Source: Oscillospiraceae bacterium (GTDB taxonomy: Bacteria > Bacillota > Clostridia > Oscillospirales > JAKOTC01). From it: 64,000 nt of DNA. The stretch lies in assembly GCA_035380125.1 (NCBI GenBank), contig DAOSWV010000009.1, positions 7,304-71,303 of the forward strand. The letters run 5' to 3'. The notes under the pieces are model-generated. The model ran no database searches. It was not told the origin of the DNA and was given only the letters and a program-made list of their open reading frames with translations. Positions 21,221-64,000 of the stretch are shown here, one piece after another. How positions within the stretch are numbered: the stretch's first letter is position 1; every line of letters starts with the position of its first letter. A program made the position numbers and the translations under genes.

Positions 21221-23108
21221 CCGCTTTTTCCTCCTTGCTGCGTTTGGTCAGCCAGACCGACAGCACCGCCAGATCGGCGGGTGTCACGCCGGAGATGCGC
21301 GAGGCCTGACCGAGGTCGCGGGGTCTGATTTTATTCAGCTTTTCGCGGGCTTCGAGCCGCAGCCCGTCGACTGTTTTATAATCGACATCGAGCGGCAGTT
21401 TTTTGACCGCGATGCGGCGCAGTTCGTCGATGCGCTCCTGCTGGATGCGGATATAGCCCTCATATTTATATTCAATATCGATTTCGGTTCCGATATCGGC
21501 GGGCAGATCGGGTCGGGTCGGGTCGAACGGCGCAAGGTCGGCATAGGAGATCTGCGGGCGTTTCAACATTTCCGACAGCCGGATTCCGCCCGTGAGCGGT
21601 AATGAACCGGTCTGTTCGAGCAAAGCGTTCAATTCGGGGCTGTTTTTGATCGTGGTCTCTTTAACCCGTTTTCTTTCGGCTTCGAGCTGCGCCTTTTTGG
21701 TTAAAAACCGCTCCCAGCGCCCATCATCGACTAAACCGAGTTCGCGGCCATGCGGCATCATACGCAGATCGGCGTTGTCCTGCCGCACCACAAGTCTGTA
21801 TTCGCAGCGCGAAGTCATCATGCGGTAGGGATCGACGACGCCTTTGGTCACGATGTCGTCGATCAATGTGCCGATATAACTGTTTTCGCGGGTCAGAATA
21901 AATTCGGGCCTGCCCAAAACTTTATGCGCCGCATTGACCCCTGCGACAAAGCCCTGCACCGCCGCTTCCTCGTAGCCGCTCGTGCCGTTAAACTGTCCCG
22001 CGCCGAAAATGCCGAGGAATTCTTTAAATTCCAGTGTCGGGGCCAGTTGAAGCGGATCGCAGCAATCGTATTCGATGGCATAAGCCGTTCGCATAATTTT
22101 AATATTTTCAAACCCTTTGATGGTTCGCAAAAATTCGAGTTGGACTTCTTCGGGCAGCGACGAGGACATGCCCTGAATATAGACCTCTTTGCTGTCGGCA
22201 CCGGTCGGCTCGATGAAAATTTGATGGCGGGTCTTGTCTGCAAATCGCACGACCTTGTCCTCGATGCTCGGGCAATAGCGCGGACCGATCCCCTCGATCA
22301 CACCTGCGAACAGCGGTGAGCGATCGAGGTTTTTGCGGATGACCTCATGCGTTTTTTCGTTTGTCCATGCGATATAACAGGGATAATCGTTTCGCAGGGT
22401 CGCGGGATCGGTGTCATAGGAAAAGGCCTCGGGCGGAATATCGCCCTGCTGCCGTTCCAAAACGCTGTAATCGATGCTGTTTCCGTCGGCTCTGGATGGC
22501 GTTCCCGTTTTAAAGCGCATCAGTTTAATGCCGAGGGCTTTCAAAGAATCGGAGAGTCCGTTGGCCGCGCGCGTGTTGTCCGGTCCGGCCTCGTAATTGA
22601 CCTCCCCGATGTGGATTTTTCCTTTTAAATAGGTGCCGGATGCAATGACGACCGATTTGGTATGATATCTCGCGCCGAGAGCGGTTTTGACGATAATATT
22701 GTTCTCTTCATCATATTCGACGGCGATAATTTCGGCTTGAACCAGCTGAAGGTGCGGTTGGTTCTCGATGATTTTCTTCATCACGGTTTTATAGCGCGGA
22801 CGGTCGCTCTGCATGCGCAAACTGCGCACCGCAGGCCCTTTTCCGAGATTCAGCATGCGGCTTTGCAAGCAGACCTCGTCGGCGGATTTGCCCATTTGGC
22901 CGCCCAAAGCGTCGAGTTCGCGCACCAGCTGGCCTTTGCCCGTGCCGCCGATCGACGGATTGCAGGGCATGTTGGCCACCGCGTCGAGATTCAGGGTGAA
23001 CAAAATCGTCTCGCAGCCGAGTCGTGCCGCCGCGAGCGCCGCTTCGATGCCGGCATGTCCCGCACCGACCACCGCAATATCAATTTTTCCGGCGTTGTAT
23101 TCGATCAT
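21213..23108 (-). CDS. mnmG: tRNA uridine 5-carboxymethylaminomethyl modification enzyme MnmG (GidA)
   Basis: FAD-binding motif DIAVVGAGHAGIEAA and a full-length GidA layout. Start is ATG 23108 behind GAAAGGA. Confidence 0.95.
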   Translation of the reverse strand: MIEYNAGKIDIAVVGAGHAGIEAALAAARLGCETILFTLNLDAVANMPCNPSIGGTGKGQLVRELDALGGQMGKSADEVCLQSRMLNLGKGPAVRSLRMQSDRPRYKTVMKKIIENQPHLQLVQAEIIAVEYDEENNIIVKTALGARYHTKSVVIASGTYLKGKIHIGEVNYEAGPDNTRAANGLSDSLKALGIKLMRFKTGTPSRADGNSIDYSVLERQQGDIPPEAFSYDTDPATLRNDYPCYIAWTNEKTHEVIRKNLDRSPLFAGVIEGIGPRYCPSIEDKVVRFADKTRHQIFIEPTGADSKEVYIQGMSSSLPEEVQLEFLRTIKGFENIKIMRTAYAIEYDCCDPLQLAPTLEFKEFLGIFGAGQFNGTSGYEEAAVQGFVAGVNAAHKVLGRPEFILTRENSYIGTLIDDIVTKGVVDPYRMMTSRCEYRLVVRQDNADLRMMPHGRELGLVDDGRWERFLTKKAQLEAERKRVKETTIKNSPELNALLEQTGSLPLTGGIRLSEMLKRPQISYADLAPFDPTRPDLPADIGTEIDIEYKYEGYIRIQQERIDELRRIAVKKLPLDVDYKTVDGLRLEAREKLNKIRPRDLGQASRISGVTPADLAVLSVWLTKRSKEEKADD

Positions 23109-23148
23109 GTAATGTCCTTTCGAGGTAAAACGTTTGTTATTTGGTGTA

Positions 23149-23600
23149 AGGGCGGATATCATCCGCTTCCTACAAGGAAAACGACCACCCCGTCACGGCT
23201 TCGCCGTGCCACCCCTCCACAGAGGGGAATTTTTGTTAATTCCATTGGGTTGCCTCTAAGGTTGAATCACGGGCGGATTATATCCGCCCCTACAAGGAAA
23301 TGACCACCCCGTCACGGCTCCTCCGTGCCACCCCAAAGGTGTCAAAGCCGCCCATAGGGCGGTATAGCGACACCATTATAGAGGGGAATTTATTGACGCG
23401 TGCTATCGGGTTTATGGTTCGCAGGTTCTATGACGCGTTTGAAACCGCCATCATGGCGGCGCGTATTGACAGCGGCGTCTCGCCGCCGGGCGGATATTAT
23501 CCGCCCCTACAGAAAAATACCGGGGTCGGAAGCGCGCGCTATGTGGCTTATGGGCAGATGATTCTATGACGCGTTTGACCGCGGGTTCTACCCGCCCCTA
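23149..23600. repeat. Mosaic REP/BIME-like repeat cluster filling the mnmG-mnmE spacer
   Basis: Hairpins at 23149-23167, 23271-23289, 23488-23506 and 23581-23595, each followed by CCTAC or CCCTAC. Short (23183-23235) and long (23302-23395) copies of the two-hairpin module. Two copies of a GCGCG.TAT.GG.TTA.G...TTCTATGACGCGTTTGA module. Confidence 0.75.
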
Positions 23601-23606
23601 CATTGT

Positions 23607-24959
23607 TTACTTTCCTAAACAGAAACGCGAAAAAATCTCGTCAATCAGCGTTTCGGGGACGTTTTCGCCGGTCAGTTCGCACAGCGCCGCAATTGCGGCT
23701 TCGATGCCGATTTGGGATGCGTCGGCGGTGATGCCCGCCTTGATATCCGATAAGGTGTTTTCGATTTCGGTTTTCGCCCGAATCAAACAGTCGCGCTGGC
23801 GCGTGTTGAAAATGCCGGTCTGCGGCTCCGATGCGCCGACAACGCTTTTGATCGCCTCTTCGAGCGTTTTGACCGCGTTTTCGTCGAATGCGCTGATATT
23901 GACAACCTTTTGAAAGGCATTTTCAAGCTGTTTTTGTTCGATGATCTGCGGAAGGTCGTTTTTATTGACCACACACAACACAGGCAGGTCTTTGCACAAT
24001 GCGATGACCTCGCGATCGCGGTCGTCCAGTTTTTGTGCGCCGTCGAAAACCGCCAATACCAACTGTGCTTCGGCAAGTTCCTGTTTGGTCTTTTCGATGC
24101 CGAGCTGTTCGATCTCATCGCCGCTCTCACGAATTCCCGCGGTATCAGCCAGATTCAATAAAACACTGCCGAGTCGTACGCTCTCTGTGATCACGTCGCG
24201 GGTCGTGCCCTCGGTCGCCGTTACCAGACAGCGCGGGCAGCCGGCCAGCAGATTCATAATGGCGGATTTGCCGACGTTGGGTTTTCCGGCGATGACGGTC
24301 TTCAAGCCCTCGCGCCAGACCCTGCCGTTATCGAAATTTTTGATTAGTTCATTGCATTTTGTGATTGCCGAAGCAAGTTTTTTATCGACGCCGTCCGGTT
24401 CCGGAACATCGTCGTCGGGATATTCTAAAAAAGCTGCGACATCCGCCGCCGCGCTGATGCAGTCGGCTTTGATCGCATCCAATTTCTTTGCCAGCATGCC
24501 GTCTTTGGCGGCTTTGGCTTCCTTTAAAGCCGATTCGCCCGCCGCATAGATCAAATTCATTACGCTTTCGGCCTGTGTGAGCGAGAGTTTTCCGTTTTCA
24601 AACGCCCTGCGGGTGAATTCGCCGGGCTGCGCGGGTTTTGCGCCCGCTTCAAGCGCGGATTTCAGCACTTTCTGCGCCAAAAACACGCCGCCGTGGCAGC
24701 AGAGTTCGGCCACGTCTTCACCCGTGTAACTATGGGGCTGTTTATAAATGATCGCTACGCCGTCATCGAAGGTTTCTCCGTTTTCGGTAAATCGGCCGTA
24801 AGCGGCGCTGTAACCGCTGAGTTCGTTCAACGGCTTTGCTGCGGACAAGAAAATTTTCTGAGCCATTTCGATAGCATTTTCGCCCGAAATTCGGATCATG
24901 GCTATGCCGCCGGCTGCGAGCGGTGTGGATATCGCCGCAATTGTGCTGTTTTTGCTCAC
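23607..24959 (-). CDS. mnmE: tRNA modification GTPase MnmE (TrmE)
   Basis: G1 motif GKPNVGKS, G3 motif DTAG, NKND, and the C-terminal ...FCLGK. GTG start behind AAGGAGG. Confidence 0.95.
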   Translation of the reverse strand: MSKNSTIAAISTPLAAGGIAMIRISGENAIEMAQKIFLSAAKPLNELSGYSAAYGRFTENGETFDDGVAIIYKQPHSYTGEDVAELCCHGGVFLAQKVLKSALEAGAKPAQPGEFTRRAFENGKLSLTQAESVMNLIYAAGESALKEAKAAKDGMLAKKLDAIKADCISAAADVAAFLEYPDDDVPEPDGVDKKLASAITKCNELIKNFDNGRVWREGLKTVIAGKPNVGKSAIMNLLAGCPRCLVTATEGTTRDVITESVRLGSVLLNLADTAGIRESGDEIEQLGIEKTKQELAEAQLVLAVFDGAQKLDDRDREVIALCKDLPVLCVVNKNDLPQIIEQKQLENAFQKVVNISAFDENAVKTLEEAIKSVVGASEPQTGIFNTRQRDCLIRAKTEIENTLSDIKAGITADASQIGIEAAIAALCELTGENVPETLIDEIFSRFCLGK

Positions 24960-25250
24960 CGTCCCGCCTCCTTGTCCGTTTTTGCGATCTTTGTGGGTGA
25001 TTCGGGGACGATTCGACCCCGAATCGTCTTGAATCGCTCAAAAATTATACCGTTTGTATTGCAGATTGTCAATTCCCCTGCCGTTTGGGAAATCGGTTTC
25101 CGTTTTACAAAGACCGCGTCTGTTAACACAACTCTTTCGCATTACCGATCTTAAACCGTTTGTTCTTGATTTTACCGCTCTTTTTGATTGCAATAGATAA
25201 TTTGCTGTGATAAAATAAAGATTGTCTAAAAATGTTCTTCGGAGGTATTC

Positions 25251-26729
25251 ATGTCCAAAAAAGTTCTCGCGTTCGATTTCGGCGCATCAAGCGGAAGGGC
25301 TGTCATCGGTTCTCTGGTCGACGGAAAAATTACGCTTGAAGAAATCCATCGGTTTTCGAATGACCCGGTCACCGTAAACGGCACGCTTTATTGGGATTTT
25401 TTGCGGCTCTATCACGAAATTCTGAAAGGGATTTCAAAGGCTGTCATCGGCGGTCACAACTTTGTCTCGCTCGGTATCGACACCTGGGGCGTCGATTTCG
25501 GTCTGCTTGACAAAGACGGAAAACTGCTTGAAAACGTGGTGCATTACCGCGACACCCGCACCGACGGCATTCCCGACCGGGTTTTTGCCGTTACCGGCAA
25601 AAAAGACCTCTATGACCGCACCGGTATCCAGTTTATGTGGTTCAACACGATCTTTCAGCTCTATTCGATTGCCAAAAAACGACCGGAACTGCTCAAACAC
25701 GCTAAAACGTTTTTATTGGTCCCCGATCTGCTGTGTTATTTCCTGACCGGAAACATGACCAACGAATTCACCATGGCGTCCACTTCGCAGCTGCTGAATT
25801 CTAAAACCGGCGACTGGGATAAGGAACTGATGAAAAAGCTGGGGATTCCGGCTGATATATTCGCGCCGCTGGTCGAACCCGGCACCTCGAAAGGCGTTTT
25901 GAATGAGGACGTCTGCGGTCAGACCGGCTGCAAACCCGTCAAGGTCTGCGCGGTGGCCGAACATGACACCGGTTCGGCAGTGCTTGCTGTCCCCGCCGCA
26001 AAGGACGAAAAATTCGCCTTTATCTCCTGCGGCACCTGGTCACTGCTCGGCGCCGAACTGCCCAAGCCGCTGATTTCCGACGACACCTATAAACTCAATT
26101 ATTCCAATGAGGGCGGCGTCAACCGCACCGCCCGTTTCCTGAAAAATATCATGGGCCTATGGCTGATGCAGGAATGCCGCAACCAATGGAACCGCGAAGG
26201 AAAGAATCTGTCATTTAAAGATATCGACACCTACACCGTCTTGGCAGAACCGCTGCGCCGCTTTGTCAACCCCGACGACGAGATGTTCAAGACCCCCGGT
26301 GATATGCCCGCCAGAATTAAACAATACTGCGAGCGTACCGGTCAGCCGTTGCCCGAGGGTATCGGTGACTATTCCCGCTGCATCACAGAATCGTTGGCTC
26401 TGGCTTACCGATATGCTATTACGAATCTCGAAAAACTGCTGGGATATAGGCTCGACGTGATTCACCTGGTCGGCGGCGGCGTCAAGGATAAGCTGCTGTG
26501 CCAGTTCGCCGCAAACGCCATCGGAAGACCCGTCGTCGCCGGCCCGATTGAGGCCACCGGCATCGGAAATGTCTGCATGCAGTTGATCGCCGAGGGCGAA
26601 TTCACAGACGTTCATGAAGCGCGCGAGTGCATCGCCCGCTCGTTCGACGTCACCACCTATGAACCTGCCGACACAGCCGTCTGGGATGAGGCCTACAATC
26701 GCTTTTTGGACGTCTGCGGATTGGAATAA
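25251..26729 (+). CDS. rhaB: Rhamnulokinase (FGGY family)
   Basis: N-terminal AFDFGASSGRA and an overall FGGY layout of 492 aa. It sits in an operon with rhaA and rhaEW. Confidence 0.88.
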   Translation: MSKKVLAFDFGASSGRAVIGSLVDGKITLEEIHRFSNDPVTVNGTLYWDFLRLYHEILKGISKAVIGGHNFVSLGIDTWGVDFGLLDKDGKLLENVVHYRDTRTDGIPDRVFAVTGKKDLYDRTGIQFMWFNTIFQLYSIAKKRPELLKHAKTFLLVPDLLCYFLTGNMTNEFTMASTSQLLNSKTGDWDKELMKKLGIPADIFAPLVEPGTSKGVLNEDVCGQTGCKPVKVCAVAEHDTGSAVLAVPAAKDEKFAFISCGTWSLLGAELPKPLISDDTYKLNYSNEGGVNRTARFLKNIMGLWLMQECRNQWNREGKNLSFKDIDTYTVLAEPLRRFVNPDDEMFKTPGDMPARIKQYCERTGQPLPEGIGDYSRCITESLALAYRYAITNLEKLLGYRLDVIHLVGGGVKDKLLCQFAANAIGRPVVAGPIEATGIGNVCMQLIAEGEFTDVHEARECIARSFDVTTYEPADTAVWDEAYNRFLDVCGLE

Positions 26730-32489: not shown

Positions 32490-34202
32490 ATGGTTAAGGG
32501 GAAACGGATTGTTTCGCTGGTTTTGGCGCTCGCGTTGTTTGCCGGGCTGTCCGGGTGTGCGGAACAAATTCAGAGCAGTGAGATTGAATCGGCGGTTTCG
32601 GATGAGAGTTCGGCGGTAAGCTCAACGAACTCATCTGTTTTGAGTGCGGTTTCCTCAAGCGAACCGCTCTCGGAAACAAGCGAATCCGTTTCGGAGTCAT
32701 ATATCTCCGAAGACGGATTCGAGGACAGTCGAATTATCAATACCGTGTTTACCAGAGAAGCTCTTGCAAATAATCCTTTGACTTCAACGGAGGGCGGTAT
32801 GGAAGCATCGAAGAAATGGGCCGCTTTGTTTGTTGAAGAAAATTATAAGGATTTTGAACCGTACGATATCACAATCAAATACAGATTCTATTGGGATGAA
32901 ATTTATATTTTATACACCGTATCTGGAGATAAAAAATGCTTTGCAATTATTTATTATACTATCAATTTTAACACAAAATTGGATTTGAGAGAATCGGGTT
33001 TATCTTGGCCAAACCCTCATTTTCATTTACAAGTTGTGATGAAAAACGATAGCGATCAATATTCATTAATCGGGTTTGTGACCAACCAAGATAAAAGTGT
33101 TGAAAATTCTTCTGAGCTTGTCGATTTTATATCGGGAGTTCCGGGCTATGAGTCAACAGTATTTTCTTTTCTTGACTCGCCGGATCCGATTGATCTAAAT
33201 ACTCTCGGTACGGATTTTATTGAAAAGTCCATCGGCGAATCCGGCCTTTCGGTGATTAATTTATCCGCATTTGTCGGAGATTTGAAAATTCGCGATTTGC
33301 ATTATTTCCCCGACAACGTTTTAGCGGTTTTGGTTTCCGATGCAAATGAGCAAAAGAAAATCATGGTTTTCGCCGCAGAGGAAATGGAGTTTTTATACGA
33401 AATAGCGATTGAAGACTCTAATCCGAATTATTTATCGATACAAAAAATCAACCAAGAAACAATTTTACGGCTTGAAATCGATGGTGCCGATCATTATTAT
33501 ACGATTACGCAGTCAGGCCTATCGGAATTTGCACAGGATCGGTTTACCAGATATCGGTTGTCATATAATGCTTATATTATCGAAGAGAAAAACAATCTTG
33601 TTTTAGAACAAAACGGTAAAAGGGAAATCCTCCTTGAAGGCATTTATCCCGAAGATGACGACGATGATACGACATGGAATTGTTATTTTTATTATTGCCG
33701 GATTAATAACACGCGGTTCATCTATAAAAACAACGGTTATGAATGGTTCAATGAATGTGGAGTTTTTGACATCGCAACCGGAGAGGCCACTGTTTTTACG
33801 CATAAAGACGCCCCTCGCTTATATATAAAAGCTTATACAGACGGAAAAGCAATATTGATTCCCGATGACTGGAGCTATTTTCTCTCAATTGGGCCTTATT
33901 TGTATGATGAGTCCACAGGGGAATTAACCGACTTGCATTGGCTCGATGGAACTTATTCCGATGGCTATTATTCATCCTTTGCCCTTTCCGGAAATCTGCT
34001 TGCGGTTGTAATTGAGGATTATCCTCTGGATTCGTTTCGCATTTTTGATTTGACCACTCAAACAGAGATTCTGAATATTCCGTTTATACAAACCCAAAAC
34101 AATTACTTGGAAGCATATTCTTTTTGTGCAACCGAGAATTATTTTTGGTTTTCTTCGGAATATTCGAATTATTATCTTTTCCGTTTTCCGATTGAGAGGT
34201 GA
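32490..34202 (+). CDS. Paralogous lipoprotein 1 (uncharacterised family)
   Basis: Signal and lipobox VSLVLALALFAGLSGC, then a Ser-rich linker. The body is AT-rich. It shares C-terminal motifs with the next two genes. Confidence 0.8.
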   Translation: MVKGKRIVSLVLALALFAGLSGCAEQIQSSEIESAVSDESSAVSSTNSSVLSAVSSSEPLSETSESVSESYISEDGFEDSRIINTVFTREALANNPLTSTEGGMEASKKWAALFVEENYKDFEPYDITIKYRFYWDEIYILYTVSGDKKCFAIIYYTINFNTKLDLRESGLSWPNPHFHLQVVMKNDSDQYSLIGFVTNQDKSVENSSELVDFISGVPGYESTVFSFLDSPDPIDLNTLGTDFIEKSIGESGLSVINLSAFVGDLKIRDLHYFPDNVLAVLVSDANEQKKIMVFAAEEMEFLYEIAIEDSNPNYLSIQKINQETILRLEIDGADHYYTITQSGLSEFAQDRFTRYRLSYNAYIIEEKNNLVLEQNGKREILLEGIYPEDDDDDTTWNCYFYYCRINNTRFIYKNNGYEWFNECGVFDIATGEATVFTHKDAPRLYIKAYTDGKAILIPDDWSYFLSIGPYLYDESTGELTDLHWLDGTYSDGYYSSFALSGNLLAVVIEDYPLDSFRIFDLTTQTEILNIPFIQTQNNYLEAYSFCATENYFWFSSEYSNYYLFRFPIER

Positions 34203-34210
34203 CGTATTAT

Positions 34211-36382
34211 ATGTCGAATTTCAAAAAGATTGCTTCGGTGGTTTTGGCGCTCGCTTTGTTTGCCGGGTTATTCGGATGTGCGGAGCAAATTCAGAGTGGT
34301 GAGATTGAATCGGCGGTTTCAAGTGAAATTACATCCGGCGAATCAACCTCTTCGGTTGAATATGTCCCGCTGGATCGATTTGAGGACGAAAATATTATCA
34401 ATACCGAATGCACGCGGGAAAAACTTGCGCAAACTGTGGTTTCCGCAAAATCCGCCGAATCCGAGTATTGGACGATAAAATTTGTCAGCAGCAATTTTCA
34501 GGCCTATTCCCCTTATTCTATCACCGCAACATCTGCTTTCAATAAGGATAATCCCGTGCTCAAATTTTCATTTCTCAACGGTCGGGAATTACACCGATTT
34601 ATAACCGAAACTTATTCGGTTCGGTTTAAGACCTTAATTCCTTATGAAGGACTGCCCTTAGACGAAAAGGGTTATTACAGCTTTGAGATTCAGCTCGTTA
34701 TGGAACAAAGTGATGACTGTACAAAACTTTTAGGGTATGTCACCAGCCGGACAGATCAAATAAAAACCCCCTCGGATGCAGTGGATTTTCTGAGCATGAT
34801 ACCCGCATATCGGGAATTGCAGTATCCTCCGAAATCGTCCGGGCAGGAAAGCGGTTGGTTTGGAGAAGGGTCGATTATAAACACCGTATACACAAGGATG
34901 TCTCTTTCTGAAAATCCCGTGACTTCGTCTTATGGTTATAGTTCGACGATTTTAGATTGGATCGATTTGTTTATCATTGGGAACTACAATTCTTTTTCGT
35001 CACGTTGGGCTACCACTTTTTCAGAGCAATTTTTTACACTTGATACAATAACCGGCGAAAAAGAATATTTTACAACTTTGAATTGTGTCACCGAATTTAA
35101 ATCCGATATTGAACCGGTGGGGTTGGAATATGACGACGGCAGCTATGAGATCAGTTTTCAAATGGTGATAAAAACGAGCGAAATTTACTATAAAGGGCCT
35201 TTTACGCTGATCGGATTTGTGACCAATCAAGAACGACAGATCATCGAGCCGCTGGAATTGTACGATTTTATAAAAGATGTACCTCGTTATAAAGACACCG
35301 ACTTTATTGTTCCCGAACCGATGAAATTTGTTAAATTGGATTCTCTGGGCTATGACTTTACCGAAACCATTGTGGACGAAGCTACCGGACTTTCGGTTGT
35401 GAATTTACACTCGTTAACCGGCGGGTTGAAGGTTGATGATTTTACGTTCTTCCCCGGCGATTTATTGGCGGTTTTAGCAGTGGATCCCGAAGTTCAAAAT
35501 GAAAAAGTGTTGATGGTATTCAATGCTGATGATCTTCAGCTGCTTTACCAAAAGACCTTTTCTTATCCTTCTGGCACCTACCCGGCCGGCGGTCATGCGG
35601 AGTTTTATAAAATCAACGGAACGCTCGTTTTAGAGCAAAAACTTGGCAATGAGAATTATAAATATTTTATCCCTGAAAAGACCGGTGTTTCGGAAATACC
35701 GAAACCGATTGCAAGATATAGGCTGTCTGATTCCGCTTTTATCGTTGAGGAAAAGAATTGTCTCTATCTTGAACAAAACGGTAAACAAAAACTTCTTCTT
35801 GAAGGTATTGATGAAGATAGCGTTGACAGCGAGGGTTACAGATTTATACACCGAATCAGCGATACGCGGTTTATTTACGAATTAATGGGCTATGAGTGGC
35901 TCGTTGAATGCGGTATCTATGACATAGAAACCGGTGAAAAGACGGTTTTCACACACGAAAATGCCCCGTTGTTGGACATCGAGGCCTATAACGACGGTAA
36001 AGCGATTTTAGTTGCAGATACCTGGTGTGGTCCCGAATATGAGTCATACGGACCCTATTTATACGATGAGTTATCCGGGGAACTGATTGATTTGGCTTTG
36101 CTGAATATCCAGCCCGATGAGACCATGATAAACCCGCTTTTCTATGTTCTCGGAAATACTCTTGTGATTTTTATAAAGAATGATCCTGTTTCAACCCTTT
36201 GTTTTTACAATCTTTCTTTAAAAACACAGATCGTGCAATTCGGTATTTTCTCTAGCCAAGAATATGCATTGAATTATTCCCACTACAACAGCGGGTTATA
36301 TACCACTGAGAATTATATTTGGTTTAATTCGGTCTATGATTTCCCGGCGGATTATCTCCTGCGAATTCCGATAGAGAGGTAA
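34211..36382 (+). CDS. Paralogous lipoprotein 2 (N-domain duplicated)
   Basis: Signal and lipobox ASVVLALALFAGLFGC. It has two copies of the N-domain ending in ..G(Y/F)VT..(Q/R)......(V/Y)DF(L/I)...P.Y. Start is ATG 34211 behind GAGAGG. Confidence 0.8.
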   Translation: MSNFKKIASVVLALALFAGLFGCAEQIQSGEIESAVSSEITSGESTSSVEYVPLDRFEDENIINTECTREKLAQTVVSAKSAESEYWTIKFVSSNFQAYSPYSITATSAFNKDNPVLKFSFLNGRELHRFITETYSVRFKTLIPYEGLPLDEKGYYSFEIQLVMEQSDDCTKLLGYVTSRTDQIKTPSDAVDFLSMIPAYRELQYPPKSSGQESGWFGEGSIINTVYTRMSLSENPVTSSYGYSSTILDWIDLFIIGNYNSFSSRWATTFSEQFFTLDTITGEKEYFTTLNCVTEFKSDIEPVGLEYDDGSYEISFQMVIKTSEIYYKGPFTLIGFVTNQERQIIEPLELYDFIKDVPRYKDTDFIVPEPMKFVKLDSLGYDFTETIVDEATGLSVVNLHSLTGGLKVDDFTFFPGDLLAVLAVDPEVQNEKVLMVFNADDLQLLYQKTFSYPSGTYPAGGHAEFYKINGTLVLEQKLGNENYKYFIPEKTGVSEIPKPIARYRLSDSAFIVEEKNCLYLEQNGKQKLLLEGIDEDSVDSEGYRFIHRISDTRFIYELMGYEWLVECGIYDIETGEKTVFTHENAPLLDIEAYNDGKAILVADTWCGPEYESYGPYLYDELSGELIDLALLNIQPDETMINPLFYVLGNTLVIFIKNDPVSTLCFYNLSLKTQIVQFGIFSSQEYALNYSHYNSGLYTTENYIWFNSVYDFPADYLLRIPIER

Positions 36383-36391
36383 CGAATTAAT

Positions 36392-38005
36392 ATGATTAAA
36401 AGAAAAAAGGTTGTTTCGCTGGTTTTGGCGCTCGCGTTGTTTGCCGGGTTATTCGGGTGTGCGGGACAGGCGCAAAGCAACGAGGTTGAATCGGCGGTTT
36501 CGGAGGGAAGTTCGATGATATCGAGCGAATCAACCTCTTCGGTTGAATATGTCCCGCTGGATCGATTTGAGGATGCAAATATTATCAATATCGTTTATAC
36601 GAGAAAATATCTTAAGGAAAACGAGATGATAATAAATCATGATGCCGCATATGCCTCAAATGAATGGTCATTAATGTTTATTAAAGATAATTATAAGAAT
36701 TATTCTCCGTACAATATCAGCTGTGAATATAAAGCTTTGGAATCATATAGTCCATATGATTATAATAATTGTGACGCCGAATTTACACTCTTCGTCTACT
36801 ATATTGAGTTTCATACCAAAACAGCTCTTAAAGAGCTGTCACCGGATGAAAGCGGGGGTTATAGTTTTTATTTACAGGTTGTAATGAAAAAAATTGATTT
36901 CTATAAGCAATCACTTTTGGGCTTTGTCACCAGTCAAACGCGGCAAATTGACAATGCCAGGGATTTGGCAGAGTTTTTAAAGAAAATTTCAGGATATGAA
37001 TGCTTAGAGCTTAAAAGACCTGTAATACCGGAAACCTTACCAGAAAATATAGAAATTATTTATTCTGCCGATTTTACGAATCTCCATATTACAGATAAAT
37101 TTATCGTAAAGGATACCATTTACTTTTTTGGTATGGAACCCTGTTACTGGCTCACCGGCAAAACGGATTTGATTTTACAAACCTTTTCTTTGCCTGATTT
37201 TCGGTTTCTTTATGAATACCATTTTTCTTTTTACGATGACAGAATTAATTCAATGGATGATGAGGGTATCATTATTAAACGCAAGAATGAACAAGGAAAT
37301 ATCTATTTCCATGCTACTGAAACCGGAGTTTCGCAGCTACCACCTACGCCGGACAGTGAAAAGGACTTATACCGTCTCTCTGAAACTGCAGCAATTCGAG
37401 AAAATGATGATGGTGATCTTTTGCTTGAACAAAACGGAAAAACTGTTATTTTGTTCGATGGTACCCCCTATACAGAGAACGCTTCTTCGGATATCTGCAC
37501 TTATTATTTTTATTATCGCGTGAACGACTCCGCTTTTATTTATATGAGCTATGGTTACGAATGGTGGATAAATTGCGGTATTTATGATATAGCGACAAGA
37601 ACCAACACCGTCTTTTCTCACGAAAACGCGGCTGATATTTGGCCAATTGCAGTAGGAAATAATAAGGTTATACTTGCCGCAGACGCCTATGAGTGGTATA
37701 CTTCATATGGGCCGTATGTCTATGATGCGGTAACCGGAGAAATTTCCGATTTAAATTGGTTCTCAAAAAAATTTGAGGAGGATTACGAACCGGTCATTGA
37801 TCTTTTCGGCGATAAATTAATCGCATTTTCAGAGGAGAATTCAGAATATGTCATCCGGGTTTGTGATTTGAGCACCGATACAAAACCCACTGTTTATCGG
37901 TTTTCGAGAGAAAGGGTAGGTTTGCCCTTAGGGATATATCAAACCGAAGATTCGTTATGGTTTTTTATTCGTTCATGTATTTTCCGAATGAAATCAGAAA
38001 GGTAA
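36392..38005 (+). CDS. Paralogous lipoprotein 3
   Basis: Signal and lipobox VSLVLALALFAGLFGC. 5' DNA is nearly identical to the paralogs and the body is divergent and AT-rich. Confidence 0.8.
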   Translation: MIKRKKVVSLVLALALFAGLFGCAGQAQSNEVESAVSEGSSMISSESTSSVEYVPLDRFEDANIINIVYTRKYLKENEMIINHDAAYASNEWSLMFIKDNYKNYSPYNISCEYKALESYSPYDYNNCDAEFTLFVYYIEFHTKTALKELSPDESGGYSFYLQVVMKKIDFYKQSLLGFVTSQTRQIDNARDLAEFLKKISGYECLELKRPVIPETLPENIEIIYSADFTNLHITDKFIVKDTIYFFGMEPCYWLTGKTDLILQTFSLPDFRFLYEYHFSFYDDRINSMDDEGIIIKRKNEQGNIYFHATETGVSQLPPTPDSEKDLYRLSETAAIRENDDGDLLLEQNGKTVILFDGTPYTENASSDICTYYFYYRVNDSAFIYMSYGYEWWINCGIYDIATRTNTVFSHENAADIWPIAVGNNKVILAADAYEWYTSYGPYVYDAVTGEISDLNWFSKKFEEDYEPVIDLFGDKLIAFSEENSEYVIRVCDLSTDTKPTVYRFSRERVGLPLGIYQTEDSLWFFIRSCIFRMKSER

Positions 38006-48184: not shown

Positions 48185-48230
48185 AAACAACACAAAAGAT
48201 CAAAAAAACAATAAACAGATGTGGAAAAAA

Positions 48231-48261
48231 CCCCGTGAAAACTTGATTTTCACGGGGTTTT
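48231..48261. terminator. Intrinsic terminator after the GNAT gene
   Basis: Perfect 11-bp stem CCCCGTGAAAA / TTTTCACGGGG, loop CTTGA, flanked by AAAAAA and TTTT. Confidence 0.7.
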
Positions 48262-48271
48262 GTGGTATAAT
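48243..48271 (+). promoter_or_regulatory. Putative dnaA promoter
   Basis: TTGATT (48243-48248), a 17-nt spacer, then TGgTATAAT (TATAAT at 48266-48271). The -35 lies in the loop and 3' arm of the terminator hairpin. Confidence 0.6.
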
Positions 48272-48296
48272 TTTCGTTAGGAAAGGTTGTGATTTT

Positions 48297-49592
48297 GTGG
48301 AGAGTTTGCAGCAGGTTTGGGACGCCGTCTGTAACATGATCAAACAGAAAATTTCCACCGTCGCTTTCAACTCCTGGATCGGAATTATCAAACCGATCTT
48401 TCTCGAGGAAGACCGTCTTCATCTGTCGGTACCCTCCACTTTCCAAAAGAATATCATCGAGACCAACTACACCAAACTGATTGAATCCACCTGCGAAGAA
48501 GTGATGGGTTTTAAACTCCATGTCGTGTTGCGCTCCGAACAGGGCGAGCCCGAAGCCGCCAGCGTTAAGAGCGCCCTCGATACACAATATACGTTTGAAA
48601 ATTTTGTTGTCGCTGCCTCGAATAAGTTCGCCTTTGCCGCTGCACAGGCCGTGGCCAAAGCGCCGGGCAGAACCTATAATCCGCTGTTAATTTACGGCGA
48701 ATCGGGTTTGGGTAAAACCCATTTGCTGACTGCGATTAAAAATACGATTGCAGAGAATTTTCCGTCCTATAACATCGTAGCGGTTCAGGGCGAGGACTTC
48801 ATTAACGACTTTATCGAGTCCATCACCCACAATTCCCAGCCCGACTTCCGCAAAAAATACCGCTCCTGCGATGTGCTGCTGGTCGACGACATTCAATTTA
48901 TCGCCAACAAGACCGCCGTGCAGGACGAGTTTTATTCCACCTTCGACAATCTGCACCGCGCCGGAAAACAGATCGTACTCTCCTCCGACCGGCCGCCGAA
49001 AGACATTTTATCACTCGACTCCCGTTTGCGCTCACGACTCGAACTCGGCCTTGCCGACATCGGTGCGCCGGATTACGAGACCCGTGTGGCCATCATCCGT
49101 AAAAAAGCCGAACTGGCCAGTTTGGAACTTTCGGATGACGTGGTCGACTATATTGCCGACAAAATTAAAGTCAATATCCGTCAGATTCAGGCGGTGATCA
49201 CAAAACTCTCGGCAAAATACATTATGAACGGGCAGGTTCCGACCCTCTCATTGACCATCGAGACCTGCCACGACATCATCAGCGACATCAGCCGCCCTGC
49301 GATTACGGTTGATATTATCAAGGAAGAAGTCAGCCGCGTCTACCAAATTCCGCCCGAAGACATCTCCTCCGAAAAACAGAGCGCCCAGATTTCGCTGGTG
49401 CGCCAAATCGCCATGTACGTTACCCGCGAACTCACCGGTCTTTCGCTCAAAGAAATCGGCGCAGAATTCGGCGACCGACATTATTCAACGGTCAATTATG
49501 CCATTGCCCGTACCGCCAAAGAAATCCGCAAGAACCAGAAACTCTCAGAGACCATTGAAGATATTATTAAAAATATCAAAAGCAAACAGTGA
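48297..49592 (+). CDS. dnaA: Chromosomal replication initiator DnaA
   Basis: Walker A motif GESGLGKTHL, the AAA+ motifs, and a C-terminal DNA-binding domain (DHSTV...). I prefer the GTG start at 48297 behind AGGAAAGG, because the upstream in-frame ATG at 48219 would run through the terminator and promoter. Confidence 0.93.
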   Translation: MESLQQVWDAVCNMIKQKISTVAFNSWIGIIKPIFLEEDRLHLSVPSTFQKNIIETNYTKLIESTCEEVMGFKLHVVLRSEQGEPEAASVKSALDTQYTFENFVVAASNKFAFAAAQAVAKAPGRTYNPLLIYGESGLGKTHLLTAIKNTIAENFPSYNIVAVQGEDFINDFIESITHNSQPDFRKKYRSCDVLLVDDIQFIANKTAVQDEFYSTFDNLHRAGKQIVLSSDRPPKDILSLDSRLRSRLELGLADIGAPDYETRVAIIRKKAELASLELSDDVVDYIADKIKVNIRQIQAVITKLSAKYIMNGQVPTLSLTIETCHDIISDISRPAITVDIIKEEVSRVYQIPPEDISSEKQSAQISLVRQIAMYVTRELTGLSLKEIGAEFGDRHYSTVNYAIARTAKEIRKNQKLSETIEDIIKNIKSKQ

Positions 49593-49868
49593 GGAAAATC
49601 GAAGTTTCAAAAGTGCGGTTTCATAAAATTAAAAAGATTGTGGAAAGTTTTTTTCTGTATTAAAAAATGCGAAAAAAATTCCAAAGTCGGATGAGGACGG
49701 AAAAAGGGCTGAACGATCAAGCAAAAACGGAATTTCATAAAGATAATAACCCCTACTGCTACTACTAAAAATATAAACATACATTTAAGTAAATTAATTC
49801 AGTTTTTTTAAGATGGCACGTTTGAAAGATAAATTTTTTAAATTAACTGCGGAAGGGCGGTCATAAAA
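49593..49868. promoter_or_regulatory. dnaA-dnaN spacer: candidate oriC segment / DNA unwinding element
   Basis: A 276-bp AT-rich spacer, especially at 49741-49850. It holds one DnaA-box-like 9-mer, TGTGGAAAG, at 49639-49647. Confidence 0.45.
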
Positions 49869-59717: not shown

Positions 59718-59730
59718 ATTAAAAATGAAT

Positions 59731-60262
59731 GTAGGGCGGGATTAGTAATCCCGCCGAAAAAAAGCGCCGAATGATCGGCGCTTTTTTATGTTTAACCACC
59801 CCGCCCGCTTCGCGTCCAACCTCTAAGGCGTCAAAGCCGTCCACAGGGCGGCATAGCGATGCCATGCAGAGGGGAATAAAGGTTTTCAACACGTTGCTGG
59901 CGATGTGAGGAAAAAATCGATAAATCTGTAGGGCGCGGCATCTCTGACGCGCCGCACGGATTATGATCACCCCACCGAAAAACGACATGTTATCCGCGCC
60001 ACGGGGGAATCCGCACGGCAGGAACGGGGTTGTCACGTCTGACAATGATGAAATTCGGAAAAAGATTACGGCGCGTCAGGGATGCCGCGCCCTACAACGA
60101 AAAAAGTTCACTGAGATGCGGCGGAGCGACGAGGGCGTCGCTCCCTACGACGAACCCCCGGCGCGCTGCGCCAACCCCTAAGGTGTCAAAGCCGCCCACA
60201 GGGCGGTATAACGACGCCATGAAGAGGGGAATATAAGCGGGCGAACGAAGTTCGCCCTTACA
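59731..60262. repeat. Dense mosaic repeat cluster (REP hairpins, two copies of the two-hairpin module, a TIR-bounded unit)
   Basis: Hairpins at 59735-59755, 59932-59953, 60070-60091, 60123-60144 and 60239-60257, with GTAG or CTAC flanks. Two-hairpin modules at 59794-59882 and 60154-60236. Confidence 0.75.
59764..59787 (+). terminator. Intrinsic terminator after glyQS
   Basis: GCGCCGA-ATGA-TCGGCGC followed by TTTTTT. Confidence 0.7.
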
Positions 60263-60304
60263 GTTTCGTTATGGACAACCGACCGTTGCGGACAACAAAG
60301 AAAA

Positions 60305-60336
60305 GCCCCCGACAGGTCATGCTGCCGAGGGTTTTT
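60305..60336 (-). terminator. Putative terminator after the small membrane-protein gene
   Basis: On the minus strand: CCCTCGGCAG-CATGAC-CTGTCGGGGG followed by CTTTTCTTT. The stem is imperfect. Confidence 0.45.
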
Positions 60337-60347
60337 GGGTTTTATTT

Positions 60348-60563
60348 TCAGTTGTCGGAGTCGGGAGAAGACAGGTCCTCGTTCAGGTCGATGTCGAACG
60401 AATCCTCGTCACTCCAGTCCGGGATGTAGGAATCGCCTTCGGTGGTGTTGAGCTTTGCCGAGAAATCCCGGATCACTTTTGCCATCAGCGCAATGATGCC
60501 GATTGCGGCCAAAAGTGCCGTGACAAGACCGAAAACAAGTCCGGAACGATTTCTTTCTTTCAT
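60348..60563 (-). CDS. Small membrane-anchored acidic protein (hypothetical)
   Basis: 71 aa starting at MKERNRS behind AAGGAGGGG. One TM helix (LVFGLVTALLAAIGIIALMA) followed by an Asp/Glu/Ser-rich tail. Confidence 0.6.
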   Translation of the reverse strand: MKERNRSGLVFGLVTALLAAIGIIALMAKVIRDFSAKLNTTEGDSYIPDWSDEDSFDIDLNEDLSSPDSDN

Positions 60564-60713
60564 GAACAACCCCTCCTTATAAAAGTATTCTACCATAGTG
60601 TTGTCATAAATTCAAGCATTTTTACAAATTGTGAAATTTCTTTTGTAATAAATAGAAAACCCGTTCTGAACACGGTTGTTTTTTACAGTAGATAGATTTA
60701 ATGGCATTATCGG

Positions 60714-61046
60714 TTCGAGATCCTTCAGACTTCAAAGAACATTCGCAAACGTTCTTCGGCAAAGCGCTCCGCTCAGGATGACATGTTCTATCGTCGGGTT
60801 GTCGATTAGGACAGCCGATATCCCATATAATTAGATTACGGGCGGATAATATCCGCCCCTACGGAGAAACATCGGGGATGATGGCATGGCTACTAGGCGA
60901 AGCCCCTGCGAAGATTACGGCGCGTCAGGGATGCCGCGCCCTACAGAGAAACACAGGGCATGGCAGCGCGCGTTATCGGGTTTACGTACAACAGATTCTA
61001 TTTCGCGTATAAGAGCGGCGTTTCGCCGCCGCGGGTTCTCACCCGC
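60714..61046. repeat. Mosaic repeat cluster downstream of mntP
   Basis: The TCGAGATCCTTCAGACT...CGCTCAGGATGACA module. Hairpins at 60840-60858 and 60919-60940, the latter inside a 35-nt exact copy of 60062-60096. The GCGCGTTATCGGGTTTACG...TTCTAT module. Hairpins at 61015-61029 and 61030-61045. Confidence 0.7.
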
Positions 61047-62038: not shown

Positions 62039-63172
62039 ATGATCTATCTTGACAATGCGGCTACGTCTTTTCCCAAGCCCTACTGTGTGGTCAATGCGGT
62101 GCGGGAGGCGTTTTTACAATACGGCGCAAATCCCGGCAGAGGCGGTTATCAGATGTCGCTGGATACCGCAGAGAGGATTTTTCGGGTACGGGAAAATTTC
62201 GCCAAGACCTTTCATTCCGGGTCGCCCGAACGGGTGGTGTTCACCCAGAACTGTACCCATGCGCTCAACCTGGCTTTAAAATGCTTTTTGCCCAAAGGGG
62301 CGCACATTGTGGTATCAGACCGGGAACACAATTCGGTGATGCGCCCGCTCGAGGCGATGGCGGCAGAGGGTCTGATTACCTACAGCGTGGCCGAAATCGG
62401 GCGGGACGTCGTGAACACGGCGGCGTATTTTGCACGGAAAATCAACCAGAATACCGCCGCCCTGCTGTGCGTACATACCTCGAACGTCGACGGTCAGGTG
62501 ATGCCGGTTGCGGAACTGGGACGGCTGGCCGCCAAATTCGGCATGCTGTTTATTGTCGACGCCGCACAGGCCGCCGGAAGCGCTGTGATCGATATGGCCG
62601 CCGACGGAATCGATCTGCTGTGTATGCCGGGGCACAAGGGGCTTTTCGGCCCATCCGGAAGCGGGGTGCTTTTGATAAGGGACCATGCGCCGCTGCGCAC
62701 ATTGATTGAGGGCGGCACCGGCAGCGATTCGATGTTGAAAAAACAACCGCTGAATCTGCCCGAGGCGCTGGAAAGCGGCACACAGGCGGTGAACGCTATT
62801 ATCGGACTCGGCGAAGGACTGCGGTTTGTCAACGAACTGGGCGCCGGAAACATAGGAGAACACGAGCGGCAGCTGCGTGAAGTGCTTGTCGAGCGGACGG
62901 AGGGGCTTTCGGGGCTTCGGATTTATGAGCCGACCAAGGCCTCGGGAATCTACTTGTTTAATTTCGATGGGATGTGCTGTGAGCGGACGGCCTCGGAACT
63001 CGAAAATGAGGGGATTGCCGTGCGGGCGGGGCTGCACTGCGCGCCGAGTGCGCATGAAGTGCTCGGGACCCTGCCGGATGGCGCCGTGCGGATCAGCTTC
63101 GGGATTTTCAACGACTGTGAACAGGTGGAACGGACGGCTTCGGCGCTTTGGAAAATTTCAAAAGCTGTGTAA
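62039..63172 (+). CDS. Class V aminotransferase-fold PLP enzyme (cysteine desulfurase / selenocysteine lyase-like)
   Basis: N-terminal IYLDNAATSFPKP, a PLP-lysine context CMPGHKGL, and C-terminal RAGLHCAP. Confidence 0.88.
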   Translation: MIYLDNAATSFPKPYCVVNAVREAFLQYGANPGRGGYQMSLDTAERIFRVRENFAKTFHSGSPERVVFTQNCTHALNLALKCFLPKGAHIVVSDREHNSVMRPLEAMAAEGLITYSVAEIGRDVVNTAAYFARKINQNTAALLCVHTSNVDGQVMPVAELGRLAAKFGMLFIVDAAQAAGSAVIDMAADGIDLLCMPGHKGLFGPSGSGVLLIRDHAPLRTLIEGGTGSDSMLKKQPLNLPEALESGTQAVNAIIGLGEGLRFVNELGAGNIGEHERQLREVLVERTEGLSGLRIYEPTKASGIYLFNFDGMCCERTASELENEGIAVRAGLHCAPSAHEVLGTLPDGAVRISFGIFNDCEQVERTASALWKISKAV

Positions 63173-63255
63173 AAGGACGCCGGCGGGGACACAAATGTGC
63201 TGTAAAGCGAATAATACTTTCCGTATGAAATATTTCAAAGGGTTTACATAATAAA

Positions 63256-63522
63256 TGTGGAAAACTTTTTGAATGTTTTGAAAATTGCCCTCGGAAGGAC
63301 GGAAAGATGCGGTTTTTTGAGATTGTAAAATAATTATGTAAACCGGAAAAATAATTATGTAAACCGATGAATAATACAAAACGGAAAAAGTGAAAAAAAT
63401 GGCTTTATTATGCGCCGCTTATATAAGCGAATATTCATGAATCGAATATCCCGCAATGATCAAAGAATCCCGAAAACCGCATAAAAAAGCCAAAAAAATT
63501 TTCCACACGGGGATGTGGAAAG
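63256..63522. promoter_or_regulatory. Cluster of DnaA-box-like 9-mers in an AT-rich convergent spacer
   Basis: TGTGGAAAA at 63256-63264. An inverted pair TTTTCCACA (63499-63507) and TGTGGAAAG (63514-63522), 6 bp apart. Each matches 7-8 of 9 positions of TTATCCACA. Confidence 0.45.
63327..63366. repeat. Tandem direct repeat, 19-nt core with 21-bp period
   Basis: AAAATAATTATGTAAACCG occurs at 63327-63345 and again at 63348-63366. Confidence 0.85.
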
Positions 63523-63589
63523 TTTTTAATATTCATTTATCGGTGACATTTATGCATCGAAAAATGTCGAATCGCCCTGTCGTAGGATG

Positions 63590-64000
63590 TCATTTTTTGG
63601 GGAGTTTGCATTGCAGGGGTCCGCCGTGCAAAAATCCGTCGACGCGTTCCAACACATCGGCGCAAGTCCCGAAATTCTTATCCGCCCCGGTGATGCGGTA
63701 ATCGAAACGGCTGACGTAGAACTTGGTCTCGTCGGCCAGCGCGTCGAGGGTCTTGCGGACGTTTTGAAACATCACTTCGCTCATCTCGCGGTAGGTGTTA
63801 TTGTCCAGCTCCTTTTCGCAGGCGGCCAGCTGTCGGGCATAGTGGTGTATACACAAGTTACCCTTTTTCTCAAACAGCTCGCGGAAGTCCTCGCGCCGTT
63901 TCCACAGCACCGCGACACCGGCTTCGAACATCTCCATATGCCCCGACATGCGGCGGCAGATATAGCAGTCGCGGTCGAGTTCGTTCAGCTTGACACCGAG
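63590..64000 (-). CDS. Hypothetical protein, 5' end beyond the window
   Basis: The frame is open to position 64000 (…LDRDCYICRRMSGHMEMFEAG…). GC-rich coding-like composition. I recognise no family for it. Confidence 0.55.
   Translation of the reverse strand, partial: LGVKLNELDRDCYICRRMSGHMEMFEAGVAVLWKRREDFRELFEKKGNLCIHHYARQLAACEKELDNNTYREMSEVMFQNVRKTLDALADETKFYVSRFDYRITGADKNFGTCADVLERVDGFLHGGPLQCKLPKK

Follow-up and report, generated by a model that had tools for sequence, protein, structure and literature searches.

A spacer module with DnaA-box-like sites, conserved in uncultured Clostridia and 13.5 kb from the replication origin in one of them

Clusters of DnaA boxes that are intergenic and lie outside but near oriC are described as the DnaA-box clusters (DBCs) of Bacillus subtilis (PMC3245932) and as datA in Escherichia coli. 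Some DBCs adjoin promoters, and DnaA titration or regulation has been proposed for them. Okumura et al. found no structural feature shared by the DBCs (PMC3245932). The DnaA-reactivating sequences (DARS) have a core in which boxes I and II point in opposite directions across a conserved 5-bp gap, with box III in tandem, and DARS2 carries accessory-protein sites at fixed distances (PMC6868365). The locus described here is a spacer at 63173-63589 of a 64,000-nucleotide stretch (the window) of contig DAOSWV010000009.1, from the Oscillospiraceae bacterium assembly GCA_035380125.1. It is intergenic, non-coding, outside oriC and 13.5 kb from the DnaA trios of the origin. To our knowledge no DARS or DnaA-recycling locus is known in Firmicutes.

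The reading favoured here, put forward tentatively, is that the spacer carries a DNA-level DnaA-binding regulatory cluster with accessory sites. We infer DnaA binding, the accessory factors and an effect on initiation from conservation, fixed spacing, the likeness of the boxes to origin boxes and the lack of coding potential. Like the DBCs and datA, the locus is a multi-box intergenic cluster near oriC. It differs from the DBCs in that its boxes are non-canonical, with DnaA binding predicted only, and in that it consists mostly of other motifs at fixed distances (M1, M3 and the B4 tail, described below), which are not described for DBCs. With DARS1 and DARS2 it shares opposed 9-mers with a short conserved gap (6 bp here, 5 bp in DARS); this likeness rests on the opposition and the gap, not on the facing ends. 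The layout of one opposed and two tandem boxes is found in lineages L016, L010 and L018, whereas the third box is degenerate in the window (TTTTTAATA).

An ordered module downstream of DUF6062

Comparison with relatives indicates that the spacer is not filler; it is one ordered non-coding module of about 350 bases, 63201-63556, built from three repeated motifs. The identical spacer was present in eight contigs, all of the same species. Twelve further lineages were recovered through homologues of the neighbouring DUF6062 gene (identity 57-89%) and one DNA-pattern scan, giving 13 lineages with that of the window, in a small clade of uncultured Clostridia. In every homologue recovered the same ordered blocks lie just past the DUF6062 3' end. 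The neighbour on the far side varies. It is an aminotransferase or OsmC gene (convergent) or one of three unrelated co-directional genes, which begin roughly 20-70 nt beyond block B1 (L016, L017 and L022). Mean pairwise identity was 0.64-0.83 in the blocks and 0.34-0.39, near random, in the segments between them. These saturated segments keep their length despite the loss of sequence, and the spacings were kept (B1-B2 42-43 nt, B2-B4 122-125 nt, B4-B6 129-132 nt in 11/13 lineages). Conservation of the spacer and its 21-bp repeat in relatives had been proposed as a check in an initial annotation. It was borne out, with the module in all 13 lineages and a repeat period of 21-22 nt; L010, L013 and L018 have a single copy.

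The spacer is 417 bp long with a GC content of 35.3%, compared to 51.4% for the window. It is flanked on the left by a plus strand class-V aminotransferase/cysteine-desulfurase-like gene (62039-63172; TIGR01977-like, with a score under the family cut-off) and on the right by the minus strand DUF6062 gene, with its stop at 63590. Length, GC content and flanking strands agree with the AT-rich 417-bp spacer between convergent genes reported in the initial annotation. The motifs listed there were all present: TGTGGAAAA at 63256-64, a head-to-head pair TTTTCCACA-N6-TGTGGAAAG at 63499-63522, a 19-nt repeat at 63327-45 and 63348-66 with a period of 21, the 14-bp palindrome CGCTTATATAAGCG at 63416-29 and a CGAATAT(T/C)C pair, found at 63428-36 and 63443-51. 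Two counts had to be corrected. The right half of the pair does share a stretch with the dnaA-dnaN spacer, of 14 nt (TGTGGAAAGTTTTT, 49639-52) and not 15 nt. The 8-mer TGTGGAAA has three sites in the spacer as reported, and six and not five in the 64 kb. These are at 48220, 49639, 63256, 63500 (minus strand), 63514 and 63899 (coding), so that beyond the spacer only both dnaA flanks and one coding site carry it. It had also been overlooked that the repeat core occurs a third time, inverted, as GGTTTACATAAT at 63241-52. The 18-mer of the repeat has three matches against 0.05 expected, a number reached by 0/100 shuffles. The alignments indicate that the actual object is larger and more ordered than first described.

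Three motif families were distinguished. The M1 family, GGTT(T/G)ACATAAT, has one plus strand copy (block B2), two minus strand copies 21-22 bp apart and a degenerate copy at the position of the palindrome. The M2 family is the DnaA-like 9-mer, present three times in tandem in B3 at spacings of 11 and 9 and twice in B6, where the copies face each other. The M3 family, TGGCTTTnTTATGCG, is an inverted pair. Neither the window nor the origin loci of relatives had a further occurrence of M1, M3 or the B4 tail, and M1 was not found elsewhere in 26 loci.

Block B1 (63201-63231, no strand assigned) reads TGTAAAG-N4-ATAATACT-N4-GTA and resembles block B4b (TGTAAACCGATGAATAATAC). It was present in 10/10 lineages with the 5' side available, at 42-43 nt from B2 in all ten. 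B2 (63241-63252, plus strand) is the M1 copy GGTTTACATAAT, to which the repeat core and the dif XerD arm are reverse-complementary. This copy is absent in L011 and reads TTGACA in L013, L016 and L017. B3 (63255-63286, plus strand) holds three M2 boxes in the same orientation, TGTGGAAAA at 63256-64, TTTTGAATG at 63267-75 and TTTTGAAAA at 63276-84, with start-to-start distances of 11 and 9. It aligned in all lineages with a mean pairwise identity of 0.76. A conserved GATGCGG with a T-run lies at 63306-63319 (plus strand, identity 0.65) and can pair with 63473-82; no conserved hairpin was found ahead of its T-run. The B4 repeat (63327-63366, minus strand) carries two M1 copies, ATTATGTAAACC, at 63333-44 and 63354-65. 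The B4 tail (63366-63390, plus strand, GATGAATAATACAAAACGGAAAAAG) is the most conserved block (identity 0.83) and includes TGnATAnTAC in 13/13 lineages. It carries a -10-like nATAAT with invariant A2 and T6, for which no conserved -35 was found and the promoter scan was negative.

The M3 arms are at 63400-63414 (5' arm, plus strand, TGGCTTTATTATGCG) and 63478-63492 (3' arm, minus strand, CGCATAAAAAAGCCA). The 5' arm pairs with 63478-92, with 13/15 pairing in register and 93% complementarity over 15 nt. Between the arms is a variable segment (63415-63477, no strand assigned) of kept length, with an identity of 0.37 over 63415-63470. It holds the palindrome, which aligns to a fourth M1-like copy of L016 (GGTTTACATAAGCGG), and the CGAATAT(T/C)C pair. 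Both motifs are present and neither is conserved; lineage-specific and falling in a saturated segment, they are judged from the alignment to be noise. B6 (63494-63527, no strand assigned) consists of TTTTCCACA (63499-507), a 6-nt gap and TGTGGAAAG (63514-22), flanked by an A-run and a T-run. The pair was ungapped in the 12-lineage alignment and has the same 6-nt gap in L013, while the gap sequence varies. By regular-expression search a pair of this type was unique within 272 kb of loci. B7 (63528-63556, no strand assigned), AATATTCAT ... GGTGAC-N-TTTATGCA, is kept in most lineages. In several relatives B7 and the DUF6062 stop codon are separated by an additional, GC-rich terminator.

Module boxes and the origin of the clade

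The window holds dnaA, dnaN, recF, gyrB and gyrA. Within the dnaA-dnaN spacer, 49750-49815 carries an origin module, CCCC-CTACTGCTACTACTA-AT-rich, whose conservation extends to L031, L027 and L029. The loci compared were window 49590-49750 and 49750-49815, L031 3794-4086, L027 8035-8259 and L029 3362-3580. The arrangement is kept in relatives with DnaA identities of 95% and 65%. The exact CTA trio run CTACTGCTACTACTA occurs in the window only at 49753-67, within the trio region 49750-67. A box-spacer-trio unwinding module is described for Firmicutes (PMC8287927). The location of the trios in the dnaA-dnaN spacer places the spacer module 13.5 kb from the unwinding site.

The origin trios are preceded by same-oriented non-canonical boxes TTTC(C/A)TAA in place of TTATCCACA, and no perfect TTATCCACA was found in the window. 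The recognition helix of DnaA (48288-49592) reads GDRHYSTVNYA, compared to GGRDHTTVLHA in E. coli. The clade motif is G(D/G)RHYSTV against GGRDHTTV, with HYS replacing D433-H434-T435, and Q and L occupy the R399 and R405 positions of the basic loop. RHYS is common to relatives down to about 48% DnaA identity. In E. coli DnaA, D433, H434, T435 and R399 are base-contacting (PMC13451751); the numbering of the E. coli sequence used here is consistent with that source. The absence of TTATCCACA from the window fits the altered recognition residues. An enumerative de novo search of four dnaA-dnaN spacers gave 14 occurrences of TTTCCTAA (<=1 mismatch), compared to 1.0 for shuffled sequence. Of the sites matching TTTCCTAA or TTTCATAA, 17/21 are oriented toward the trios.

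A matrix made solely from the origin boxes of the clade was applied to the 13 modules. It gave 3-10 matches per module, compared to 0.7-2.1 in shuffles, and these always fell on the B3 boxes, three in one orientation, and on the opposed B6 pair. At 8 bits the densest AT-rich segments of the window were, in order, the dnaA-dnaN spacer, the dnaA upstream region and this spacer (0.69 per 100 bp against a background of 0.23; 3 matches against about 1 expected). TTTTCCACA is also a full match to TT[A/T]TNCACA (PMC6868365), the complete consensus of E. coli, from which that of this divergent DnaA may differ. The spacer has three matches to this consensus and two more with one mismatch. The window has 9 against 4.4 expected, three of them within 63166-63507. 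Of the roles first proposed, the DnaA-box cluster is the best supported, by the conserved position and orientation of the boxes in 13 lineages and by their matches to the E. coli consensus and origin matrix; DnaA binding is a prediction.

Two pairs of lineages from the same samples allowed the origin and the module to be compared. L027 and L013 have TTTCGAAAA and TTTCAAAA at origin and in module alike. L029 and L017 have TTTCCTAA and TTTTCCACA at the origin and the reverse-complement forms TAGGAAAA and TGTGGAAA in the module. These pairs indicate that origin and module boxes vary in the same direction.

Box-like sequences were also seen just outside the spacer. Inverted 9-mers, TTTGGAAAA and TTTCAAAAG, lie at 63147-63163 in the last codons of the aminotransferase gene and are partly conserved in relatives. 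A further TT[A/T]TNCACA match at 63166-74 overlaps its stop codon.

Taken as a DnaA-binding cluster, 63201-63556 would most likely be a self-contained cis-acting module that assembles proteins on double-stranded DNA. The DnaA of the clade would occupy the three same-oriented boxes (63256-84) and, about 240 bp off, the two boxes at 63499-63522 that face each other across a fixed 6-bp gap. The M1 sites (two in tandem at two helical turns and an inverted copy) and the M3 inverted pair would be bound by one or more accessory proteins. The likely job of the module, 13.5 kb from the unwinding site, would be to titrate or remodel DnaA and so tune initiation, on the model of the B. subtilis clusters and of E. 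coli datA and DARS. In this genome the two facing boxes, bordered by an A-run and a T-run, may double as the only intrinsic terminator of both convergent operons. A single hairpin cannot explain tandem copies at 11, 9 and 21-22 bp, which points to protein sites. Tandem copies at one or two helical turns, with spacing fixed across saturated sequence, fit a DNA scaffold better. A more specific proposal is improbable as it stands. It takes the module for a Gram-positive counterpart of DARS or datA, a chromosomal site dedicated to changing the nucleotide state or availability of a DnaA with a rewired recognition helix through face-to-face assembly, joined by accessory proteins of which one uses XerD-arm-like sites, or else for a new and ornate non-coding RNA of about 300 nt.

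Several observations weigh against DnaA binding as the explanation. The spacer was third densest at 8 bits, but two coding bins equal its count at 6 bits, so support from the window by itself is modest. The commonest module box, TTTTCCACA, and the commonest origin box, TTTCCTAA, differ at two positions. The 14-mer shared with the dnaA-dnaN spacer is not kept in L031, which is 95% identical. Most of the conserved module sequence is unexplained by DnaA, the origin loci lacking M1, M3 and the B4 tail. The B3-B6 distance is 234-244 bp and reaches about 307 bp in L013, a spread too wide for strict helical phasing over long range. Nearly all relatives were recovered through DUF6062, and its linkage to the module is therefore partly ascertainment. 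The inverted M1, M2 and M3 copies also co-vary like base pairs, which an RNA would account for with one principle.

Part of a split origin had been among the roles suggested for the spacer. In such a bipartite origin the spacer would be the distal DnaA-box half, looping to the dnaA-dnaN unwinding site. Firmicutes normally carry a box cluster upstream of dnaA. Here that region spans only about 100 bp and contains two or three boxes, its neighbours are lplA or GNAT genes and not rpmH, and the spacer has five boxes. The two sites are however 13.5 kb and 10 genes apart, and the spacer has neither trios nor an unwinding element. The GC skew stays positive over 61-64 kb (+0.12 and +0.08 in the last two kb), with no switch at the spacer, and its cumulative minimum is near 30 kb, not at dnaA. 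With a conserved unwinding module at 49750-49815, the suggestion finds little support and is considered very improbable. The module was also rejected as the origin proper, the trios being elsewhere and the skew showing no switch.

Other features were noted around dnaA. At 48231-48271 a terminator hairpin, CCCCGTGAAAACTTGATTTTCACGGGG, is directly followed by an extended -10 promoter, TGTGGTATAAT. This makes the listed dnaA ATG at 48219 a probable misannotation, with translation likely starting near 48288. The genes rsmG, mnmG and mnmE (20531-25251, minus strand) are separated from dnaA by about 23 kb of plus strand genes (25251-48200), which include an FGGY kinase, a 2-oxoacid dehydrogenase complex, a lipoate ligase and a GNAT gene.

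Helices, hairpins and the face-to-face pair

The module could instead be the gene for one or two structured non-coding RNAs, an explanation that is less probable but still to be reckoned with. The helices would be H1 (B2 with B4), H2 (the M3 arms) and H3 (B6), in an RNA of about 150 nt running from the B4 -10-like element to the B6 hairpin or of about 290 nt starting from B2. The motif families would be the two strands of these helices, and the duplicated copies would offer alternative pairings. The plus strand of 63378-63532 folds at -38.6 kcal/mol (z -3.96), and a 283-nt version gave z -2.6 on the plus and -3.4 on the minus strand. A closing stem is at the same place in most lineages. The three helices were 79.1% paired over 12 lineages compared to 74.6% when shuffled (0/500 reached this value) and 36-46% in slid controls. 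The covariation score was 0.166 against 0.112 shuffled (0/500), with 15 two-sided pair changes against 8.8. L010 keeps H2 through four compensated pairs. In L016 and L017 the T-to-G change in B2 is compensated in exactly one B4 copy, and L020 and L025 show a G-C, G-U, A-U series.

Other measures do not support a structured RNA. RNAalifold retained only 8 pairs, the B6 core, with a covariation term of -0.04, and the duplex energy of H2 beat shuffles in just 7/13 lineages. Wobble pairs in H3 favour the plus strand (11 against 3), but the overall counts of 29 (plus) and 20 (minus) give no clear strand. The fold energies and wobble pairs favour no single strand. No sigma-A promoter was found at one common aligned position. 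A plus strand T-run after B6 is limited to the window-like group, with none on either strand in L016, L010 and L018. In a genome of 51% GC, a structured RNA would not normally have AT-rich helices at 35% GC. Rfam 15 gave no match in the module even at E <=10 and nothing in 63000-63800 below E 1.4. A described RNA family was rejected, the only Rfam match in the window being a tRNA at 7524-97. Protein sites whose inverted copies change in concert would give the same pair statistics as a helix, and the tandem boxes and the stem-breaking box changes of L017 and L022 suit sites over stems. The earlier suggestion of a small RNA gene keeps the covariation of the inverted repeats on its side and has the 8 RNAalifold pairs, the lack of strand asymmetry and the absence of an Rfam match against it. 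As to whether the module acts as DNA or as RNA, DNA is placed tentatively ahead, and not by much.

In the window B6 also looks like a bidirectional intrinsic terminator. A scan of both strands of the window found B6 to be the only terminator-like feature for both convergent operons. Its 14-bp hairpin has a fold energy of -14.7 kcal/mol on the plus strand (z -4.1) and -11.5 on the minus strand (z -3.0), and in the window it is flanked by an A-run and a T-run as such a terminator would be. It differs from one in that the stem sequence itself is conserved beyond pairing and is AT-rich. The T-run 3' of B6 on the plus strand is found only in the window-like group; the distant L016, L010 and L018 have none. 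Five relatives keep B6 despite having their own GC-rich terminator after DUF6062. In L017 and L022 the right half of B6 is now TTAGGAAAC and TTTGGAAAC, which are valid origin-type boxes and break the hairpin complementarity, so that the hairpin is weakened. We argue from the retention of B6 in terminator-bearing relatives, the missing T-runs, the invariant gap, the kept arm sequence and these box-preserving changes that a recognition site of fixed geometry is ancestral, and that termination at B6 is a local add-on.

Other explanations, surroundings and significance

The DnaA-binding reading was also weighed against an operator or promoter region for another regulator, for instance of the Spo0A, CodY or other global-regulator type, with local promoters reading leftward from B1 or outward from B4 and B7 and with the box likeness an incidental product of AT-rich sequence. 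This appears improbable. The statement in the initial annotation that convergent genes need no promoter holds for this genome and fails in L016, L017 and L022. A co-directional gene starts directly past the module there, roughly 20-70 nt from B1, and the module must therefore contain its promoter. B1 is overlapped on the minus strand by the best-scoring sigma-70-like match in the region (TTGAAA-16-TATTAT, 10/12); no conservation of the -35 of this match was seen among lineages. Further -10-like hexamers are in B1, B4 and B7, and M1, M3 and the B4 tail are not shared with the origin loci. The boxes are one base off the 0A box, and a perfect TGTCGAA, which we take to be the Spo0A 0A-box consensus, is at 63565-71. 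It lies between B7 and the DUF6062 stop; L009 and L026 retain it, L011 does not. In the window-like lineages and L013 the blocks are however equally conserved although the flanking genes are convergent, leaving no gene to drive. The downstream genes differ among lineages, no conserved -35/-10 pair was found, and the box variants follow the degeneracy of the origin boxes of the same clade. A sigma-54 promoter within M3 was rejected, its GG-to-GC spacing being short by one base as read from the sequence. Sites for CcpA (cre), parS and Noc, compared by eye with their consensus sequences, gave no fit in the module.

M1 resembles the XerD arm of dif sites. TTATGTAAACC is an 11/11 match to the XerD arm of Syntrophus dif, and the 12-mer ATTATGTAAACC is the end of Syntrophus dif TTGTCCTATAAGATATATTATGTAAACC (PMC2731167). 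A site for Xer or another tyrosine recombinase, with M1 as XerD-type arms and B6 as an inverted-arm core around a 6-bp overlap, would serve recombination or XerD-dependent SMC handling. According to a citation in PMC11840125, isolated XerD sites (XDS) act on SMC. The identity of M1 to published XerD arms over 11-12 nt (PMC2731167), the conservation of three copies and the core-like geometry of B6 with its variable 6-nt spacer suit this idea. Unlike dif (PMC2731167, PMC3025954), the module has no XerC arm 6 bp from the XerD arm (1-8/11 matches, mean about 5, chance 5.3), and it has several copies beside oriC and not a single one at the terminus. None of the Xer arms compared resembles the B6 arms, and no recombinase gene is adjacent. 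A recombinase site is accordingly given very little weight and dif was rejected for want of a XerC arm. The likeness of M1 to XerD arms does not make it a dif site but may point to the accessory factor.

An iteron-like site had also been proposed. Like the iteron origins of pSC101-like plasmids, the spacer has DnaA-like boxes, an AT-rich stretch, 21-22-bp direct repeats and inverted repeats. The fit is loose. There are one or two repeats, the core equals the XerD arm, and the module is chromosomal and syntenic across the clade with DUF6062 reading toward it. An iteron origin was rejected on the low number of repeats (two; one in L010, L013 and L018) and on the lack of a fold match for DUF6062. 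A plasmid, phage or mobile-element origin was likewise rejected, with no PLSDB match by blastn and no match in viral contigs by pattern scan. A small protein or type I toxin was rejected after peptide matches in all six frames, no frame being kept across lineages. A 73-codon minus strand frame has stops in 8/13 lineages. The ATG of the MALLC... frame is lost in close relatives, and the MNIKNF... frame is interrupted by a 1-nt indel. The ATG at 63398 reads ACG or ACC in L011, L020, L025 and L026.

DUF6062 is the final gene of an operon with a Na+-decarboxylase beta subunit and an OadG-like peptide, which usually precede it. The protein has 237 amino acids and conserved CxxC motifs (window 63590-64000; L001 11552-12265). 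Its AlphaFold model is all-helical and confident, with a predicted local distance difference test (pLDDT) score of 83.6, and Foldseek gave no fold match in the PDB (best E-value 1.5). A literature search on the family returned no paper mentioning DUF6062.

Two other regions of the window were noted. A long non-coding stretch at 59718-61038 has GC-rich hairpin repeats, CGGCGCGTCAGGGATGCCGCGCCCTACA, at 60069-96, 60918-47 and, inverted, 59925-54, and a 63-nt direct repeat at 59816-78 and 60171-233 that is 89% identical. The pattern is like that of repetitive extragenic palindromic (REP) elements or miniature inverted-repeat transposable elements (MITEs). A low-GC island at 32500-38000 (38-41% compared to about 54% in its flanks) has four long plus strand open reading frames and was probably horizontally acquired.

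If the boxes bind DnaA, the module would be a compact, sequence-defined initiation-control locus in a clade with altered DNA-reading residues, and a first candidate for a datA- or DARS-like device in Clostridia. Together with the unusual origin boxes it would make the co-evolution of initiator and site directly testable with one protein and two short DNAs. If the module acts as RNA instead, it would be a new family linked to DUF6062, a gene of unknown function. Under either reading, a palindrome that looks like a terminator between convergent genes can be under sequence-specific selection.

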